DNA from: a virus
Lineage: Duplodnaviria > Caudoviricetes
Direction: 5' to 3' (one strand)
Length of the DNA: 64,000 nucleotides
IMG/VR virus record: IMGVR_UViG_3300020045_002727
Span: 1 to 64,000 of that record
In this document: piece by piece, positions 20,912 through 63,887 of the stretch
How positions within the stretch are numbered: the stretch's first letter is position 1
Layout: each line of letters begins with the position of its first letter
Notes under the pieces: model-generated
Databases searched by the model: none
Told to the model about the DNA's origin: nothing
What the model saw: the letters and a program-made list of their open reading frames with translations, nothing else
Position numbers and translations under genes: made by a program

Positions 20912-21818
20912 ACTCAATCTAAAGAACGTGGTGTTCTTTGATATTGAAACGGTAGCATTATACGATGAACTACCAGAAAACTCACCAACATGGGATGCTT
21001 GGCAATACAAGATGGAACGTGAAGGTAAGTCAACCGAAAACCTAAAAGAATCTTACAAGAAAACAGCAGCATTATACCCAGAGTTCTCGAAGGTAGTTTG
21101 CATCTCCCTTGGTAGGATAAAAGGTAACAAGTTAAACCTTAAATCATATTATGGTGAAGAGAAAGTATTACTGCAGGATTTTACCGATGATTTGAATTTA
21201 GTTACAGATTCAATACCTAAAACAGTTTTATGTGGTCAGGCTATCATTGGATTTGATGTACCATTCTTGTTTAGACGTTGTTTAGTTAACGGTATTCAAC
21301 CACATGATTTATTGGATGTATCTGATAAGAAACCATGGGAGGTGTTGGATACAATGATTGATACAAATGTCTTATGGAAAGGCACTGGTTTCAATGGTGC
21401 TTCGCTTATTGCAATTGCTAACGCATTCGGTTTACCATCACCAAAAGATGATATTTCTGGAGCTGATGTTGGTAGAGTGTTTTATTCAGAAGGTGAAGCT
21501 GGTTTGAATCGTATAGTAACTTATTGTGAGAAAGATGTACTAGCTGTTGCAAATGTTGTTAGGAAGTGTAGATTTGAAGACATTTTAGAACCTGTTCATT
21601 CAATTGATGATAGTGAAGAAGCGTTTGAGAAGCAACCATTGATTATAAGCCTTTTTAACGGGGGTGCGTTCAATGAAAAACAACAACAGGAGTTAACAGA
21701 CCTTTATAATAAATGTAGCGATAAAACAGCCGCTATGATTGTTCTGGAAGCTATGACATCTACAGCAAAAGGTAAAATAACAAAAGTAACAAAAGCATGG
21801 CTAAAGACACTAAAATAA
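20895..21818 (+). CDS. PolB-type 3'-5' exonuclease-like protein
   Basis: FFDIETV, GFDVPFL, YCEKDV. Confidence 0.8.
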   Translation: MKVLNKLNLKNVVFFDIETVALYDELPENSPTWDAWQYKMEREGKSTENLKESYKKTAALYPEFSKVVCISLGRIKGNKLNLKSYYGEEKVLLQDFTDDLNLVTDSIPKTVLCGQAIIGFDVPFLFRRCLVNGIQPHDLLDVSDKKPWEVLDTMIDTNVLWKGTGFNGASLIAIANAFGLPSPKDDISGADVGRVFYSEGEAGLNRIVTYCEKDVLAVANVVRKCRFEDILEPVHSIDDSEEAFEKQPLIISLFNGGAFNEKQQQELTDLYNKCSDKTAAMIVLEAMTSTAKGKITKVTKAWLKTLK

Positions 21819-22447
21819 TCCTACCAAGGAAAGATGAGAATGGTGAGTATTACATCTCTTACTCTCAACTTACAACATGGAAGAAAAGTAAAAGGGATTA
21901 CATCAGGCAGTATTTCTTCGGGGATAAATTTGAAGGTAACTCTTACACTGATTTCGGGGGAGATATTGGTGAAGCATTAGAGAATAATGATTTCTCTGAT
22001 TTCACAGCCAAGGAGAGAGCATTCTTAGAAACTATCCCACGTTATGACCAATTTGAACGTAAAATCAGATTGGAATTAGATGGATTCTATGTCATGGGAT
22101 TCATAGATACGAATACAGCTGACTTTAAACACATCATGGACTACAAAACTGGTGATATGGGTAAAGAATCAGAGTATGACAATGATAAGTATTACCAATT
22201 AGAAATTTATGCAATGGGGCTGGAGCAAGAGACTGGAATCTTACCAGAGACTGCTAAAGTAACATTGATTGAAAGAACTGGTAATGCTTTCCAAGGTGAG
22301 GAATTAAAACTAGGTACTAAATTTATTCAGATTGACAGGTCATTAGACCCGTTTAGATTAGAATATGTTAAAGCTGATGTAATTAAAATTGCTCATGAGA
22401 TTTCAGATTGTTACAAAACATTTTTAACATTGTGTGGAAATGAGTAG
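21797..22447 (+). CDS. PD-(D/E)XK exonuclease (RecB/Cas4-like)
   Basis: ISYSQL, GFID...IMDYKTG, QLEIYA. Confidence 0.8.
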   Translation: MAKDTKIILPRKDENGEYYISYSQLTTWKKSKRDYIRQYFFGDKFEGNSYTDFGGDIGEALENNDFSDFTAKERAFLETIPRYDQFERKIRLELDGFYVMGFIDTNTADFKHIMDYKTGDMGKESEYDNDKYYQLEIYAMGLEQETGILPETAKVTLIERTGNAFQGEELKLGTKFIQIDRSLDPFRLEYVKADVIKIAHEISDCYKTFLTLCGNE

Positions 22448-22619
22448 GTCAAGAAAAGATGAAGAAGTTAAAACACCCTCGGCTAGGCTGAGGAGTGTTT
22501 TCTATCTGTTGTGGACTAAGGATAAACAAGGTCATGGTGACTTTGAAGATTTTTATGATGACAAGATGGAGATGCTTATTGAGCATTATAAAAATATTTT
22601 GAAAAAACTTTCTAAATAA
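22434..22619 (+). CDS. small hypothetical protein
   Basis: TPSARLRSVFY...YDDKME pattern seen in phage hypotheticals. Confidence 0.65.
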   Translation: MEMSRSRKDEEVKTPSARLRSVFYLLWTKDKQGHGDFEDFYDDKMEMLIEHYKNILKKLSK

Positions 22620-22620
22620 T

Positions 22621-22651
22621 TTGGAGGGTATTAAAATTTATTATATCTTTG
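22621..22651 (+). promoter_or_regulatory. promoter of tRNA array 1
   Basis: TTG at 22621, TATCTTTG at 22644-22651, 20-nt spacer. Confidence 0.78.
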
Positions 22652-22655
22652 CCTC

Positions 22656-22757
22656 ATGAAAATAATCAGACTGCATATAATAATAGCACTTCTAACATTA
22701 GAAGTATTAGTTCAAGACCCTCATATGGGTCATGAGGTAGCGTGTTTAATGGTGTAA
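22656..22757 (+). CDS. putative leader ORF (33 aa MKIIRLHIIIALLTLEVLVQDPHMGHEVACLMV)
   Basis: Hand-translated; lies between the promoter and a terminator hairpin. Confidence 0.35.
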   Translation: MKIIRLHIIIALLTLEVLVQDPHMGHEVACLMV

Positions 22758-22780
22758 TAATTTTATGCTAAATATATACT

Positions 22781-22812
22781 AAGCCTCCTCTCGAAAGACT
22801 GGAGGCTTTTTT
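22781..22812 (+). terminator. intrinsic terminator/attenuator before tRNA array 1
   Basis: AAGCCTCC-TCTCGAAAGACT-GGAGGCTT followed by a T run. Confidence 0.8.
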
Positions 22813-22858
22813 ATTCGGTTTTTAATAGGTTGACCGAGATAAAAATAACTTATTATTT

Positions 22859-22946
22859 CTAGGTGTGAAGGCAATTGGAAGCCGACTCGTTTTGGAAACG
22901 AGAAGTAGTTAATAGCTCAATGCAGGTTCGAGTCCTGTCACTTAGA
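22859..22946 (+). tRNA. tRNA-Pro(TGG) with long variable arm
   Basis: Acceptor CTAGGTG/CACTTAG, CTCGT-TTTGGAA-ACGAG, ~19-nt variable region, T arm GCAGG-TTCGAGT-CCTGT. Confidence 0.85.
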
Positions 22947-22955
22947 CAATATTTT

Positions 22956-23027
22956 GCTCCCATCGTCTAGCGGTTAGGACATCAGGTTTTCGACCTGAGA
23001 ACGAGGTTTCGACTACCTCTGGGAGTA
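22956..23027 (+). tRNA. tRNA-Glu(TTC)
   Basis: GCTCCCA/TGGGAGT, TCAGG-TTTTCGA-CCTGA. Confidence 0.9.
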
Positions 23028-23072
23028 CATAGAGATACTTAGCCTTTAACTCTTTAAAAAGCAAGGTACTTT

Positions 23073-23144
23073 TGCACCATCGTATAACGGCTAGTACAAT
23101 TGCCTTTGAAGCAATTAGCATAGGTTCGATTCCTTTTGGTGCAA
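23073..23144 (+). tRNA. tRNA-Gln(TTG)
   Basis: TGCACCA/TGGTGCA, ATTGC-CTTTGAA-GCAAT. Confidence 0.92.
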
Positions 23145-23151
23145 CAAACAT

Positions 23152-23226
23152 GGTGATTGTAGCTGAATTGGTTAAAGCCTCTGATTGTGATTCAGAAGAT
23201 TAAGGGTTCGAGTCCCTTCTTTCACA
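23152..23226 (+). tRNA. tRNA-His(GTG)
   Basis: TCTGA-TTGTGAT-TCAGA; encoded G-1; two T.T mismatches in acceptor stem. Confidence 0.82.
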
Positions 23227-23231
23227 CTAAA

Positions 23232-23313
23232 GCTGATGTGAGTTAAAAGCGAATGGCAGAGCATCTCCCCTTAGAAGGGAGGACTTTTGAGGGTTCAAAT
23301 CCCTCCAACAGCA
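23232..23313 (+). tRNA. tRNA-Leu(TAG), atypical (short variable region, enlarged D region)
   Basis: GCTGATG/CAACAGC, CTCCC-CTTAGAA-GGGAG, GAGGG-TTCAAAT-CCCTC. Confidence 0.75.
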
Positions 23314-23318
23314 CTACT

Positions 23319-23390
23319 TTCTGATTAGTTCAATGGATAGAACAGGTGATTACGAATCATCAAATACAAGTTCGAGTCTTGTATCGGGAA
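23319..23390 (+). tRNA. tRNA-Arg(ACG)
   Basis: TTCTGAT/ATCGGGA, GGTGA-TTACGAA-TCATC. Confidence 0.9.
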
Positions 23391-23395
23391 CAATA

Positions 23396-23474
23396 GGGGT
23401 CATGGTGAAACGGTAAACACGCAGGTCTTAAAAATCTGTGCTTCGGCTTGTGGGTTCAACTCCCACTTTCCCCA
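23396..23474 (+). tRNA. tRNA-Leu(TAA)
   Basis: CAGGT-CTTAAAA-ATCTG, GC-TTCG-GC variable arm; two acceptor mismatches. Confidence 0.85.
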
Positions 23475-23500
23475 CAAAAGTTAAAATATTCACAAAATAT

Positions 23501-23531
23501 TTGCACATGTAAATTATTTGTAATATCTTTG
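23501..23531 (+). promoter_or_regulatory. internal promoter in tRNA array 1
   Basis: TTGCACA at 23501, TATCTTTG at 23524-23531, 20-nt spacer. Confidence 0.8.
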
Positions 23532-23541
23532 CTTCATAATA

Positions 23542-23573
23542 AAACGAATAGTTCAGTTGATAGGGAACAATTT
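23542..23573 (+). repeat. 32-nt dispersed repeat, copy 2
   Basis: AAACGAATAGTTCAGTTGATAGGGAACAATTT. Confidence 0.9.
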
Positions 23574-23579
23574 AAAATT

Positions 23580-23652
23580 TGGTATATAGCTCAATTGGTA
23601 GAGCATCTCCCTGATACGGAGAAGGGTATAGGTTCGAGTCCTATTGTACCAA
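23580..23652 (+). tRNA. tRNA-Ile(GAT)
   Basis: TGGTATA/TGTACCA, TCTCC-CTGATAC-GGAGA. Confidence 0.93.
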
Positions 23653-23667
23653 CAATATTAAATAAAG

Positions 23668-24168
23668 ATGATTAGAAATTCAAAACAAGTAGAGTTAACA
23701 AAATTAGCTTATAATAAAGGATATAGAGTTTTAGAAAATGGAGATGTGATAGGACTTAGAGGTAAGAAATTAAATCTTTTTGAAAACAGTAAAGGATATT
23801 ATTGTTTCACTATAAGAAGAAAAGATAAATGCCCTACTTATACATTTGTTCATAAATTAAAAGCCTATCAATTATTTGGAGATGAATGTTTTAATGAAGG
23901 AATTGTAATTAGACATTTTAATGGTAACAATAAAGATAACTCAGATATTAATATTAAAATTGGAACTCAATTTGATAACATGATGGATATGACACCATTA
24001 CAGAGAAAGTTAAATGCGAGTAGTCCTATTCATAATCATTCTGAAATATTGAAAGATAGAGAATCTGGAATGACATATAGAGAAATACAAGAAAAATACA
24101 ATATTTCATCTAAAGGAACAATTAGTTTTATTGTAAACAAATCAATGAAGAAAGAAAAACTAAAATAA
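23668..24168 (+). CDS. HNH homing endonuclease inserted in the tRNA array
   Basis: FVHKL, IRHFNGNNKDNSDINI..GTQFDN HNH-like core; C-terminal HTH. Confidence 0.8.
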   Translation: MIRNSKQVELTKLAYNKGYRVLENGDVIGLRGKKLNLFENSKGYYCFTIRRKDKCPTYTFVHKLKAYQLFGDECFNEGIVIRHFNGNNKDNSDINIKIGTQFDNMMDMTPLQRKLNASSPIHNHSEILKDRESGMTYREIQEKYNISSKGTISFIVNKSMKKEKLK

Positions 24169-24180
24169 ATGTTAAAATAG

Positions 24181-24211
24181 TTGCAAGGTAATATTTTTTG
24201 ATATATCTTTG
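24181..24211 (+). promoter_or_regulatory. promoter restarting the tRNA array after the HNH gene
   Basis: TTGCA at 24181, TATCTTTG at 24204-24211, 20-nt spacer. Confidence 0.8.
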
Positions 24212-24222
24212 TACCATAATAT

Positions 24223-24306
24223 AGCGAGGTAGTCAGTAGATGGTAGCTTGTGAGGCTCATAACCTCATGTCGAAAGACCCCGTGGGTTCGAGTCCCACTC
24301 TCGCAA
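24223..24306 (+). tRNA. tRNA-Met(CAT), initiator-like, with long variable arm
   Basis: A1.A72 mismatch, TGAGG-CTCATAA-CCTCA, variable arm GTC-GAAA-GAC. Confidence 0.8.
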
Positions 24307-24311
24307 CAAGA

Positions 24312-24368
24312 TTTGTCATCGTTTTTTAAAATTAAGGATTAATAAGTGACGGCTCGGAAAGACGAGCA
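24312..24368 (+). ncRNA. structured RNA, candidate skipping-rope-like motif
   Basis: GTCAT/GTGAC stem around an AT-rich linker, then GCTCG-GAAAGA-CGAGC; family name from memory only. Confidence 0.5.
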
Positions 24369-24371
24369 ATT

Positions 24372-24443
24372 GGTCTATTGGAGTAGTGGTAACTGTACTA
24401 GCTTGTCACGCTAGGGTCGGGGGTTCGATTCCCCCATAGACCG
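24372..24443 (+). tRNA. tRNA-Asp(GTC)
   Basis: GGTCTAT/ATAGACC, CTAGC-TTGTCAC-GCTAG, G73. Confidence 0.93.
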
Positions 24444-24482
24444 CAAAAGTTTTATAAGATTTTCCTTTGATAAAATCTAAAC

Positions 24483-24556
24483 GCCTTAATAGCTCAGTCG
24501 GTTAGAGCATCTCATTTGTAACGAGAAGGTCGTAGGTTCAAACCCTACTTTTGGCT
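24483..24556 (+). tRNA. tRNA-Thr(TGT)
   Basis: Loop TTTGTAA; acceptor GCCTTAA/TTTTGGC with two T.T mismatches. Confidence 0.85.
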
Positions 24557-24640
24557 CTATTTTAGAAAACATTAATCCTATGGTCGGATGTGAGAACCAT
24601 ATAGCCGTATTTAAAAAACTCACAATGTTTTCTAAAAGAG
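24555..24640 (+). ncRNA. uncharacterised pseudoknotted RNA
   Basis: 14-bp closing stem TTTTAGAAAACATT/AATGTTTTCTAAAA; inner TATGGT/ACCATA hairpin whose loop can pair with CTCAC and CCG. Confidence 0.6.
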
Positions 24641-24642
24641 TA

Positions 24643-24755
24643 AGCTCGATTAGTGTAATGGTAACACGCAGCAAATCCCAGCTGAAAGAGAGTCATAGAG
24701 TAGAAATAATCACTTTATGATGAAACATAACAGGTTCGATTCCTGTATCAAGCTC
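24643..24755 (+). ncRNA. tRNA-Gly-derived tRNA-like RNA with aberrant anticodon loop and ~45-nt insertion
   Basis: GCTCGAT/ATCAAGC plus U73, GTGT/ACAC D stem, CAGC-AAATCCCA-GCTG, extra 9-bp hairpin, perfect T arm. Confidence 0.7.
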
Positions 24756-24802
24756 AAATCGATTGGTTGTGATGACGAGGAGGTCGATGCCTCAATTACA
24801 AT

Positions 24803-24874
24803 CGTGTGTTCGTCTAGTGGTCAAGGACGGTGACAAGTGCGTTGCAAACATGGGTTCAAATCCCATACACACAT
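24803..24874 (+). ncRNA. tRNA-shaped RNA with 6-nt anticodon-position loop
   Basis: GTGTGT/ACACAC acceptor, GTCTAGTGGTCAAGGAC D arm, GTGAC-AAGTGC-GTTGC, ATGGG-TTCAAAT-CCCAT. Confidence 0.7.
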
Positions 24875-24880
24875 CAAATA

Positions 24881-24981
24881 GTCTATTAATAAAAGTTATA
24901 TCAATGACACATAACAACGTGATTAACTTAGGATATGAGAATGTAAGTTCTCCACATAGTAAACCGATAAAATTAATAGAC
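24881..24981 (+). ncRNA. uncharacterised multibranch RNA
   Basis: GTCTATTAAT/ATTAATAGAC closing stem; inner AAGTTA/TAACTT and GAGAA/TTCTC hairpins. Confidence 0.45.
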
Positions 24982-24985
24982 ATAT

Positions 24986-25058
24986 ATCCTTATAGCTTAA
25001 ATGGAAAAGCCTCTGATTTCTAATCAGACGAGTACAGGTTCAAATCCTGTTAGGGATA
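24986..25058 (+). tRNA. tRNA-Arg(TCT)
   Basis: ATCCTTA/TAGGGAT, TCTGA-TTTCTAA-TCAGA. Confidence 0.9.
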
Positions 25059-25062
25059 CAAA

Positions 25063-25161
25063 GGGAGATGATAGCGATTTTGGGAAAGGTGAGTTGACTC
25101 CTCATCCGTATTCAGGTTGCCACCATGCAACTGGTGCTGAGTATGTAGCTACATATCTCCC
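25063..25161 (+). ncRNA. uncharacterised GC-rich junction RNA
   Basis: GGGAGAT/ATCTCCC closing stem; GTGAG/CTCAT and TATTCAG/CTGAGTA plus GTTGC/GCAAC arms. Confidence 0.55.
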
Positions 25162-25168
25162 CTATTAG

Positions 25169-25242
25169 TGCCATTTAGCTCAGTTGGTTAGAGCAGTCCC
25201 CTCATAAGGGAAAGGTCACAGGTTCGAGTCCTGTAGTGGCAA
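25169..25242 (+). tRNA. tRNA with CAT anticodon (elongator Met or Ile2, not resolved)
   Basis: TGCCATT/AGTGGCA, TCCC-CTCATAA-GGGA. Confidence 0.88.
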
Positions 25243-25432
25243 CAAAAAGTCAGGGTAACACCTGATTTAATTTTAAGTATTAATGTAAAAAAATTTACAG
25301 TTATGTATAGTAAGATAATTAAAGGTAAGAAAGTTAAAACTATAAAGTATTCTAAACCATACAGTAGTAGTCAACTATCAGCAATGATGGAATTAACTGA
25401 TATATTTGAACGTAAAATAAAAAAGCTCAGAA

Positions 25433-60716: not shown

Positions 60717-60762
60717 CAAAGATAATAAAAAAGGTCTAACCAACTTTATTGATTAGACCTTG
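60717..60762 (-). terminator. terminator of tRNA array 2 overlapping a TATCTTTG promoter
   Basis: AAGGTCTAA/TTAGACCTT hairpin, T run, then TATCTTTGCA. Confidence 0.75.
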
Positions 60763-61203: not shown

Positions 61204-61289
61204 CAGAAGATAGAGAAATCGAATCCCCATCAGGTACTACCCGATGCCATGGGGTTCAAGCCCACTTTGTCACCTTGACGGTATCTTCT
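61204..61289 (-). tRNA. tRNA-Ser(TGA)
   Basis: AGAAGAT/ATCTTCT, GTGGG-CTTGAAC-CCCAT, long variable arm. Confidence 0.88.
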
Positions 61290-61365
61290 ATAATCGTATC
61301 GAGACTTCTGACGTAAGCAGTGTATATAATACTTACCGAATTAACTCCCTTTATGAGACTCAACG

Positions 61366-61446: not shown

Positions 61447-61454
61447 AAAATGAT

Positions 61455-61483
61455 AAAGCCTCCAATCTTTCGAGAGGAGGCTT
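61455..61483 (-). terminator. terminator/attenuator hairpin before tRNA array 2
   Basis: AAGCCTCCTCTCGAAAGATTGGAGGCTTT; one nt different from the 22781 hairpin. Confidence 0.75.
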
Positions 61484-61511: not shown

Positions 61512-61583
61512 TTAAGACATGTCCTCTCGATAGCCATTCCAGCTATAGAAATTAAACGAGTTATATGTGTTACAATTTTTCAT
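61512..61583 (-). CDS. putative leader peptide MKNCNTYNSFNFYSWNGYREDMS
   Basis: Hand-translated 23-aa ORF ending ~30 nt before the hairpin. Confidence 0.45.
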   Translation of the reverse strand: MKNCNTYNSFNFYSWNGYREDMS

Positions 61584-61605: not shown

Positions 61606-61899
61606 TTAAACAGTTGTTGCAATTTCGATGTTTGGTGCAATTTCATCCAATACGAATGTGTATGCTCCAGTTGCTTTCACTATTGTTGCAGTGAACACAA
61701 AAATTTTGTAAGGTGTTTTACCTGTTAAAACTACTTTAGCTGCTGTAATGTCTGTTACCAATGCTGGATTTTTAGCATAAGTTTCTTCAACTTCCCTTAC
61801 TTTTGCAATAGCCGCTTCAACAGCTTCATAAGTTAAAACTCCTGCGCTTGTACATGAGAATGTAATATCTCTTAATCCTGTTCCGTAAACTCCTGCCAT
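61606..61899 (-). CDS. small protein with own promoter (TATCTTTG at 61929-61936), highly expressed-type codons
   Basis: ORF track; GCT/ACA/GTA-rich like the capsid gene. Confidence 0.7.
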   Translation of the reverse strand: MAGVYGTGLRDITFSCTSAGVLTYEAVEAAIAKVREVEETYAKNPALVTDITAAKVVLTGKTPYKIFVFTATIVKATGAYTFVLDEIAPNIEIATTV

Positions 61900-62918: not shown

Positions 62919-63887
62919 TTAGTTGTTTAAATTGTTAAAGTACCACACTCTAGCTTTATTTGATATAGCCGAGGTCACTTTTTTAATTTCTAGGTTGTTC
63001 TGTTCGATTGTATCTTTTTCTTCCTTTAAAACGTCTGAAATAACCCATCTTAAAAATTCACCAGTATTCTTCTGGGTTGTTTCAATTTGCATTTCTTTCA
63101 TGTAAGCTAGACCTTGTTCTAAACGATTGGTTGTACAAACGTTATCAACAAAATCGCTGATTTTACTTATTTGCTCAACATCAACTGAATTTAGTGTTTT
63201 AACTTTTGATACAGAATGTTTCTCACCTTTTGATTTGAATTTAAGCTCTGGGTTTGTTGTGCATGTGAATACAATACCTTCACCAATTCCAGATACACCA
63301 AATGCTTTGGCTACAGGACATTCATTTTCAACTTGAAGAGTCATTTCGATTAGCTTGTTTTGAGATAGCTCTGGGTTGTTGAAATCAATGTCGATTGAGA
63401 ATGTTTGAAATTGATTAATGTTGTAAATTTCTTGATTGGTGTCTGATACATTCGGTATGTTCACCCATTCATCATCGATTTTAATTGCAAAAACTACAAA
63501 CATTTTAGGTAATCCTGTGATACCTACACCTTTTTGGATATTACCACCACACCATTCACCGTAAATAGCCATGTAGTCTTTGTATTCAAAATCTGCAAAT
63601 AACATTGACAAGTCTTTCTGACTCATCTCAGCATAGAATCCAGCGTTATCAGAACCTTCCGATAAAACCCTCTCCCTTGATTGAAACTCTGTTCGACCAT
63701 CTGCGTATCGCACAATGGCGGCATTAGTCCCGTGGAGCTTTACAGTCCCCTCGAATCTTAATGTTGGGTAGGGTGATGTGTGAGCATAAATTGCATTACC
63801 TTCTTCGTCTAACCCTTGGAAATCATGTTGTGTTTTTACTTTGTGAACAATGTTTCTAAATTGTTCAGTACTTGGATATTTTTTCAT
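62919..63887 (-). CDS. RNA ligase, Rnl2 family
   Basis: KLHGTN (motif I), FQSR, YGEWCG, FVVFAI, GEGIV, FKSKGEK. Confidence 0.88.
   Translation of the reverse strand: MKKYPSTEQFRNIVHKVKTQHDFQGLDEEGNAIYAHTSPYPTLRFEGTVKLHGTNAAIVRYADGRTEFQSRERVLSEGSDNAGFYAEMSQKDLSMLFADFEYKDYMAIYGEWCGGNIQKGVGITGLPKMFVVFAIKIDDEWVNIPNVSDTNQEIYNINQFQTFSIDIDFNNPELSQNKLIEMTLQVENECPVAKAFGVSGIGEGIVFTCTTNPELKFKSKGEKHSVSKVKTLNSVDVEQISKISDFVDNVCTTNRLEQGLAYMKEMQIETTQKNTGEFLRWVISDVLKEEKDTIEQNNLEIKKVTSAISNKARVWYFNNLNN

Follow-up and report, generated by a model that had tools for sequence, protein, structure and literature searches.

Candidate leader-peptide attenuators in front of the tRNA arrays of a phage related to Cellulophaga phages

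Transcription attenuation by leader peptides is best described for the enterobacterial trp, his, leu, thr, ilvGMEDA and pheA attenuators and for pheST, in which a promoter-proximal short ORF of diagnostic codons is followed by a terminator located before the regulated genes. An antiterminator at the end of the ORF competes for the 5' arm of this terminator, and in the ilv and thr leaders several amino acids are sensed together. T-box riboswitches also monitor tRNA status and flip between terminator and antiterminator, but they bind one uncharged tRNA directly and without translation, control synthetase or amino-acid genes and contain a conserved motif, none of which was seen in the phage leaders described below. 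In stalling leaders of the ermC, cat and msrD type, arrest in a short leader ORF remodels the downstream RNA structure as well; there, however, the trigger is a drug together with a nascent-peptide motif and not codon supply, and many of these leaders affect translation rather than termination.

The tRNA genes of phages are usually viewed as constitutive codon-usage helpers or as replacements for tRNAs cut by defence systems. To our knowledge, the control of their expression is largely unknown, and we are aware of few studies on leader-peptide attenuators in Bacteroidota. A literature search returned no report of leader-peptide attenuation of tRNA genes; its coverage was incomplete and novelty is not proven. 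E. coli pheV was considered as a precedent and discarded, as neither a leader nor an attenuator was present upstream of it. As a separate first-look observation, a 45-codon ORF is located 115 nt upstream of ten tRNAs (Pro, Pro, Lys, Lys, Leu, Leu, Leu, Ala, Ser, Ser) in phage phiCbK (JX100813.1 49540-49677), and about 32 of its 44 residues are drawn from those five amino acids.

We analyzed a stretch of 64 kb, called the window in the following, which comprises the first part of a viral record of 74,135 bp with terminal repeats and 34% G+C. It contains two tRNA arrays on opposite strands, each preceded by a short ORF and a hairpin. We propose that both elements are leader-peptide transcription attenuators gating the phage tRNA arrays, and we assign this reading a probability of roughly 0.7. 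What we observed directly is the anatomy of the elements and the fact that it is conserved in three phage lineages, together with a frame-specific match of the leaders to their tRNA sets and a complementarity of leader and terminator that co-varies. That the leaders are translated is inferred, as are the start of transcription, the efficiency of termination, the coupling between ribosome and polymerase, the read-through response and the trigger, because there are no transcript or ribosome data for these leaders; DNA sequencing runs contained the phage in small shares only, and no RNA runs were listed.

The named phages nearest to this phage are Cellulophaga phages, and its PD-(D/E)XK nuclease (21797-22447) shares about 50% identity with the counterparts in phi38:1, phi40:1 and Calle_1. 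Judged from these similarities, the host of this marine phage is most likely a flavobacterium, and promoters of the Bacteroidota type would be expected. phi38:1 lacks its own RNA polymerase (PMC5335546), so that transcription relies on promoters and terminators of the host type. Searches with the flanking nuclease and a 97-aa protein as single queries found no close relatives, an alignment query gave one 66-kb relative with zero tRNA within 10 kb, and four short metagenome contigs checked as relatives contained no tRNAs.

The first element and the array behind it comprise the following features:

22620-22651, plus strand: promoter P1 of the Bacteroidota type, with -33 element TTTG at 22620-22623, a 20-nt spacer and -7 box TAnnTTTG at 22644-22651 (pattern scan and genome-wide box list)
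22656-22757, plus strand: leader ORF 1, 33 codons (ORF listing, composition tests)
22729-22742, plus strand: candidate antiterminator of leader 1, ORF nt 74-87, codons 25-29 (duplex with the 5' arm of hairpin 1)
22781-22816, plus strand: hairpin 1 (22781-22808) with U-run, putative intrinsic terminator/attenuator (folding, pattern search)
22859-25243, plus strand: tRNA array 1 with Pro, Glu, Gln, His, Arg(ACG), Leu(TAA), Ile, an HNH gene, Met, Asp, Thr, tRNA-like RNAs, Arg(TCT) and Met (ARAGORN, Rfam)
23500-23531, plus strand: internal promoter P2, with the -7 box of P1 at 23524-23531, 48 nt upstream of tRNA-Ile
24182-24211, plus strand: internal promoter P3, with the -7 box of P1 at 24204-24211, 11 nt upstream of tRNA-Met and just past the HNH gene
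25247-25278, plus strand: terminator-like hairpin closing array 1 (terminator scan)

The second element consists of:

61583-61512, minus strand: leader ORF 2, 23 codons (ORF listing, composition tests)
61521-61531, minus strand: predicted antiterminator of leader 2, ORF nt 53-63, codons 18-21 (duplex with hairpin 2)
61447-61483, minus strand: hairpin 2 (61483-61456) with interrupted U-run (folding, pattern search)
61446-60765, minus strand: tRNA array 2 with Tyr, Ser(TGA) at 61289-61203, Ser(GCT) at 61198-61113, Asn, Trp, Phe and Cys (ARAGORN, default and relaxed)
60731-60761, minus strand: strong terminator closing array 2 (terminator scan)

Default ARAGORN and Rfam called 12 tRNAs on the plus strand and 5 on the minus strand; relaxed ARAGORN settings added the two tRNA-Ser genes of array 2, and Rfam gave a class-II tRNA-like match at 61204-61290. 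Several peculiarities of array 1 are mentioned here for completeness. The tRNA-Pro (22859-22947, plus strand) has 89 nt, its extra arm is longer than is usual in Pro tRNAs, and it barely reaches the Rfam cut-off (29 bits). The gaps at 24557-24986 and 23227-23319 (plus strand) contain tRNA-like sequences that default ARAGORN did not call; with relaxed settings, a Met-like gene with an insert and one gene with an unreadable anticodon were found. The HNH homing endonuclease gene (23668-24168, plus strand; PHROG HNH families, E 8e-14) is inserted between tRNA-Ile and tRNA-Met.

For comparison we used two lineages of Cellulophaga phages, Calle_1/phi38:1 and phi4:1/phi17:2; phi4:1 is an unrelated phage of 146 kb. 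Both have three tRNA modules, which in Calle_1 form one long array, and all six modules begin with a TAnnTTTG promoter, continue with an ORF (22-32 codons) and a GC hairpin plus U-run, and end in the tRNAs. Module by module, the tRNA sets of both relatives agree:

Module 1: Pro, Glu, Gln, His, Leu, Arg(ACG)
Module 2: (Ala), Lys, Ile, Gly, Met, Asp, Thr, Val, Arg(TCT), (Met)
Module 3: Tyr, Ser, (Ser), Asn, Trp, Phe, (Cys)

In the window, array 2 is equivalent to module 3 and array 1 to module 1 followed by module 2. Eight leaders were thus analyzed, two from the window and six from the modules of Calle_1 and phi4:1. Their ORFs have 22-33 codons, and all eight are followed by terminators of -12 to -20 kcal/mol with U-runs. 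In Calle_1 (MT732432.1 29500-42500), the tRNA features in GenBank lie about 52 nt away from the tRNAs in the sequence; the calls of Infernal and ARAGORN agreed with each other and both contradicted the annotation. Because of this 52-nt shift the ARAGORN coordinates were used for Calle_1. The modules of all three lineages are also roughly sorted by the first codon letter, module 1 reading mostly codons starting with C plus Glu, module 2 codons starting with A and G, and module 3 those starting with U plus AAY and AGY.

The two GC hairpins of the window are each 28 nt long and identical at 27 of the 28 positions, which bears out the initial annotation, made from the sequence before this analysis, in its claim that hairpins differing by one nucleotide, each preceded by a short ORF, stand before both arrays. 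Both ORFs were present, with 33 and 23 codons. A window-wide search gave only these two hairpin matches, with 0 expected by chance. Each hairpin (dG -15.6 kcal/mol, z -3.6) folds into a stem of 8 bp, a 2x2 internal loop, which holds the single base difference, and two further pairs capped by a GAAA tetraloop. Six U follow the stem of hairpin 1, and tRNA-Pro begins 50 nt after the hairpin; after the stem of hairpin 2 there are three U, three other bases and four U, and tRNA-Tyr begins 9 nt after this stem. The criterion for an intrinsic terminator, a stable GC-rich stem-loop with a U-run immediately behind it, is satisfied by both, although the U-run of hairpin 2 is interrupted.

The exact hairpin was absent from IMG/VR outside the window's own record. 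When the loop was left free, the stem occurred in >114 unrelated viral contigs, in none of them with the same loop or a tRNA context, so the outer stem alone is a generic terminator stem. Outside the hairpin, nucleotide similarity between the two leaders was not significant (local alignment P = 0.24 upstream and 0.94 downstream); the motifs which had been regarded as common to both leaders are at chance level. The two sites therefore share one hairpin sequence and a common layout and do not represent a duplicated leader. A possible role of the two hairpins in genome inversion, as an inverted repeat of 28 bp, was also considered and rejected, as the repeat is too short and the idea had no support.

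The key new evidence comes from the comparison between these phages. For each leader, we counted the post-initiator residues for which a tRNA is present in the module behind, using the amino-acid usage of the long ORFs of the window phage genome as background. Per-leader binomial P values ranged from 1e-2 to 9e-7 over the eight leaders, the longest uninterrupted in-set runs comprised 8 to 16 residues (P 5e-2 to below 5e-6), and the Fisher combination of the composition tests gave P of about 4e-19. The leaders are homologous by module, and between lineages their sequence has diverged while the composition was kept; they therefore represent about three independent designs and not eight, each of which is significant alone. 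Enrichment was seen in the ATG frame only, and for no module but the one behind the leader; the remaining two frames are interrupted by stops and lack the pattern. Own-frame, own-module scores were 0.64 and 0.52 for module-1 leaders, 0.67 and 0.81 for module-2 leaders and 0.68, 0.68 and 0.52 for module-3 leaders. At the codon level, under strict wobble rules, the own module read most leader codons when compared with the other modules of the same phage in all eight cases.

In leader 2, 15 of the 22 post-initiator residues, and 14 of codons 3-18, specify Asn, Cys, Tyr, Ser, Phe or Trp. These six amino acids are the full specificity of the seven array-2 tRNAs (binomial P 1e-5, longest-run P 5e-6). 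Leader 1 contains 23 residues out of 32 for which array 1 provides a tRNA, compared with only 1/32 for the array-2 set. With a composition P of 4e-3 to 9e-3, a run P of 0.05 and an antiterminator P of 0.15, leader 1, the site flagged at the outset, is the weakest of the eight leaders. Six of its first seven residues match the module-1 leader of phi4:1, with different Arg and Leu codons; the same residues encoded by different codons argue for selection on decoding rather than on the nucleotide sequence. It had been suggested that leader 1 needs one additional A to be read correctly. In the given frame, however, leader 1 can be aligned to its module-1 counterparts in phi4:1 and Calle_1 and fits array 1, whereas the shifted frame would fit array 2, and the suggestion was dropped.

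We then searched the ORF plus spacer of each of the eight leaders for duplexes with the 5' arm of its own terminator, using shuffled sequences as controls. The best partner of the arm was located in the distal part of the ORF (codons 16-29), just past the roster codons, i.e. those matching the downstream tRNAs, in 8/8 leaders, with duplex energies of -10.6 to -18.5 kcal/mol. Against the shuffled controls, seven leaders gave P values of 0.001 to 0.05, whereas leader 1 gave 0.15 (combined P about 5e-8). Because the arms differ in sequence between modules and lineages, this complementarity amounts to co-variation of two elements.

Leader 2 presents the clearest case: 9 of its bases can pair without a mismatch with the 5' arm and the inner loop of hairpin 2 (shuffle P 0.007 for a duplex of -15.9 kcal/mol). 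In leader 1 the pairing with the arm of hairpin 1 is weak and runs via three short helices (duplex -10.6 kcal/mol). The probable explanation of this weakness is that hairpin 1 was copied recently from hairpin 2 and took the place of the terminator that module 1 had before, an inference from sequence based on the unrelated flanks of the two hairpins and on the relatives, in which each module has its own terminator sequence.

To model folding, we took the nascent transcript as far as the loop of the terminator and masked 30 nt for the ribosome. When the ribosome was placed as stalled on codons 6-14, antiterminator pairing formed in 8/8 leaders, but only partially in leader 1 (4/10 arm bases) and in module 1 of phi4:1 (at most 7/11). 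With the ribosome at the stop codon the antiterminator pairing was lost in five leaders; in leader 1, 0/10 arm bases remained paired. A terminated state without ribosome, in which the arm is free, was predicted for three leaders (leader 2 and the leaders of Calle_1 module 3 and phi4:1 module 1), which thereby show three-state behaviour. In leader 2, the modelled antiterminator formed only with the ribosome stalled on codons 6-14, and an upstream partner sequesters it when no ribosome is present, as also known from enterobacterial attenuators. In terms of predicted anatomy, leader 2 would be a textbook case of a complete switch, the mechanism itself being inferred. In the leaders of Calle_1 module 1 and phi4:1 module 3, which have long tails, a ribosome terminating at the distant stop codon would not reach back far enough to mask the antiterminator. 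These two do not fit the masking step, and details of the switch must therefore differ between leaders.

Taken together, the following mechanism is proposed. Host RNA polymerase would transcribe a short ORF rich in codons that are decoded by the downstream tRNAs, in the case of leader 1 from the Bacteroidota-type promoter and in the case of leader 2 probably by read-in from the upstream operon. When decoding is fast, the ribosome would reach the end of the ORF and cover or pass the distal segment, hairpin and U-run would form and the tRNAs would not be made. When matching charged tRNAs are scarce, the ribosome would stall early, the distal ORF segment could pair with the 5' arm of the hairpin and transcription would read through into the tRNA genes. 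The outcome would be negative feedback on tRNA supply, module by module. Read-through conditional on stalling had already been suggested from the position of a terminator between promoter and tRNAs behind a translated leader. The suggestion is well supported by the recurrence of the layout in both comparison lineages, the mirroring of the own tRNA set in each leader and the leader-terminator complementarity, yet the mechanism remains an inference. A connection with cleavage of host tRNAs, raised together with this suggestion, is inference only.

Leader translation might still act by a different logic, for example through positive feed-forward on read-through or transcript stability, or through processing of the precursor by the peptide or the ORF. 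The codon match ties the elements to decoding without giving the sign of the response, and both the weak antiterminator of leader 1 and the two leaders with distant stop codons leave space for such alternatives. On the other hand, the ORFs end 18-49 nt before the hairpins, so that a translating ribosome cannot directly block hairpin formation. The classical sign agrees with the location of the complementary segment directly behind the roster codons and with the three-state folds of leader 2, Calle_1 module 3 and phi4:1 module 1. We consider a different logic unlikely, while not negligible.

A scan for sigma-70 type promoters was uninformative, as hits were fewer than in shuffled sequences and the consensus of the host group differs. 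The Bacteroidota promoter consensus (TTTG, about 20 nt, TAnnTTTG) fits, and the genome carries a family of such -7 boxes, each followed by three bases and then CA. The -7 box of P1 ends 4 nt before the ATG of leader 1, and exactly the same distance was found in five leaders, i.e. leader 1 and four from Calle_1 and phi4:1. If transcription starts at the A of the CA after the box, the transcript begins at the A of the ATG, position 22656, and leader 1 is probably a leaderless mRNA; this start site is inferred. A helix between CCTCATG and CATGAGG, proposed earlier to hide the ATG of leader 1, becomes doubtful, because it uses positions 22652-22655, which lie upstream of the predicted start and are probably not transcribed.

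No Bacteroidota-type promoter of its own was found for leader 2 in the genome-wide box list. It sits 22 nt past a 97-aa gene (61606-61899) and probably belongs to a minus-strand operon with an RNA ligase gene. This ligase gene (62919-63887, minus strand; phrog_548, E 3e-57) lies within the gene run ending at leader 2 and array 2, and its occurrence together with tRNA arrays hints at a theme of tRNA repair or counter-defence. Beyond the window, a TATCTTTG box at genome position 65135 (minus strand) probably drives the operon leading into leader 2, and four near-identical promoter-like boxes about 100 nt apart (-33 TTGCA, -7 TACATTTG) were noticed at genome positions 66883-67341 (plus strand).

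The second alternative starts from these transcription units. The hairpins could be ordinary terminators that end upstream transcripts, namely those of the 97-aa gene and of the 61-aa gene at 22434-22619 upstream of P1, with the ORFs being chance and the tRNAs made by leaky read-through or from other promoters. The generic outer stem, shared with many unrelated phages, is compatible with this, as are the internal promoters of array 1 and the position of hairpin 2 behind an operon with no promoter in between; without a promoter of its own for leader 2 and with an interrupted U-run, hairpin 2 could merely end that operon. However, P1 lies between the upstream gene and leader 1, and in the relatives a promoter stands directly before each leader. 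There is mostly no space for a further promoter between hairpin and tRNA either: the distance is 6-9 nt in 5/8 cases, which leaves no room for a second promoter in these, and the 9-nt gap excludes one between hairpin 2 and tRNA-Tyr. Moreover, chance ORFs would not give a frame- and module-specific match between leader and tRNAs which is far beyond chance. Ordinary termination is therefore regarded as improbable.

The internal promoters nevertheless limit the proposed attenuation. P2 is followed neither by an ORF with a start codon nor by a terminator; the spacing is as in leader 1, but ATA replaces ATG, and by its sequence the stretch after P2 (23532-23579, plus strand), which runs into tRNA-Ile, looks like the remnant of a decayed module-2 leader. 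As P2 and P3 lack attenuators, strict gating in this phage is inferred only for array 2 and for the first six or seven tRNAs of array 1.

A third possibility, that the short ORFs encode small functional proteins with their own terminators and merely lie beside tRNA genes without any regulatory role, has little left in its favour. Some of the ORFs are annotated in longer forms as hypothetical proteins in phi38:1 and phi4:1, and the leaders are conserved between close relatives; between relatives of 96% identity the module-1 leader core is unchanged. Across lineages, though, it is the composition and not the sequence that is kept, this composition follows the tRNA set, lengths vary from 22 to 33 codons, and the complementarity to the terminator arm would stay unexplained. 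Only phi4:1 itself was found when IMG/VR was searched with a degenerate module-1 leader pattern, and tblastn with the leader peptides gave self matches only; the peptides are too short or too variable as queries for locus searches. Finally, direct sensing of tRNA by the leader RNA without translation, by T-box-like codon-anticodon pairing, for which the leader codons are by construction complementary to the downstream anticodons, is barely tenable, since the matching codons lie in one frame bounded by start and stop codon, no T-box or other Rfam leader family matched at threshold, and ten or more successive different specifiers are without known precedent.

Among the described systems, attenuation by leader peptides, above all by the ilv and thr leaders that sense several amino acids, remains the closest to the phage elements in its logic. 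The criteria of an upstream short ORF, codon enrichment and a terminator before the genes are all satisfied, and that of an antiterminator at the end of the ORF is met by leader 2 (9 bp, P 0.007) and the six leaders of the relatives (P 0.001-0.05), whereas leader 1, at P 0.15, does not reach significance. The resemblance to the enterobacterial attenuators does not extend to sequence or covariance models. None of the Rfam leader families (Trp, His, Leu, Thr, Phe) matched at gathering, the sole sub-threshold hit being Phe_leader at 22676-22815 (23 bits vs. a cut-off of 55, E 0.88), and the T-box covariance model gave no match at gathering or with E up to 1. In contrast to the enterobacterial leaders, those of the phages are located behind Bacteroidota TAnnTTTG promoters and are probably leaderless mRNAs, they comprise a roster of 6 to 10 amino acids, and they would control tRNAs and not enzymes or a synthetase. 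Since the regulated genes are tRNAs, the sensed molecule would be the product itself.

Two reservations concern the physiology. We know of no demonstration of transcription-translation coupling in Flavobacteriia. Furthermore, amino-acid starvation slows decoding too and would trigger the switch, in which case extra tRNA would be of no help.

Going one step further, the phage might operate a modular homeostat of decoding capacity, in which each module is switched on by stalls on its own roster of codons and tops up those tRNAs that the host lacks or that anticodon nucleases have destroyed; the RNA ligase in the operon of leader 2 may share in this counter-defence. We put this forward as a tentative idea that could well turn out to be wrong.

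For annotation, simple rules follow from the leaders, which at present are mostly unannotated or entered as longer hypothetical proteins. As phi38:1 and its Cellulophaga host are in culture and infection transcriptomes exist, the idea is directly testable, and if it is confirmed, the leaders could be used as compact sensors for the shortage of specific tRNAs. If the proposed attenuation is true, these phages would exert direct product-sensing feedback on decoding capacity, and the mechanism known from trp and his would extend to RNA products and to Bacteroidota.
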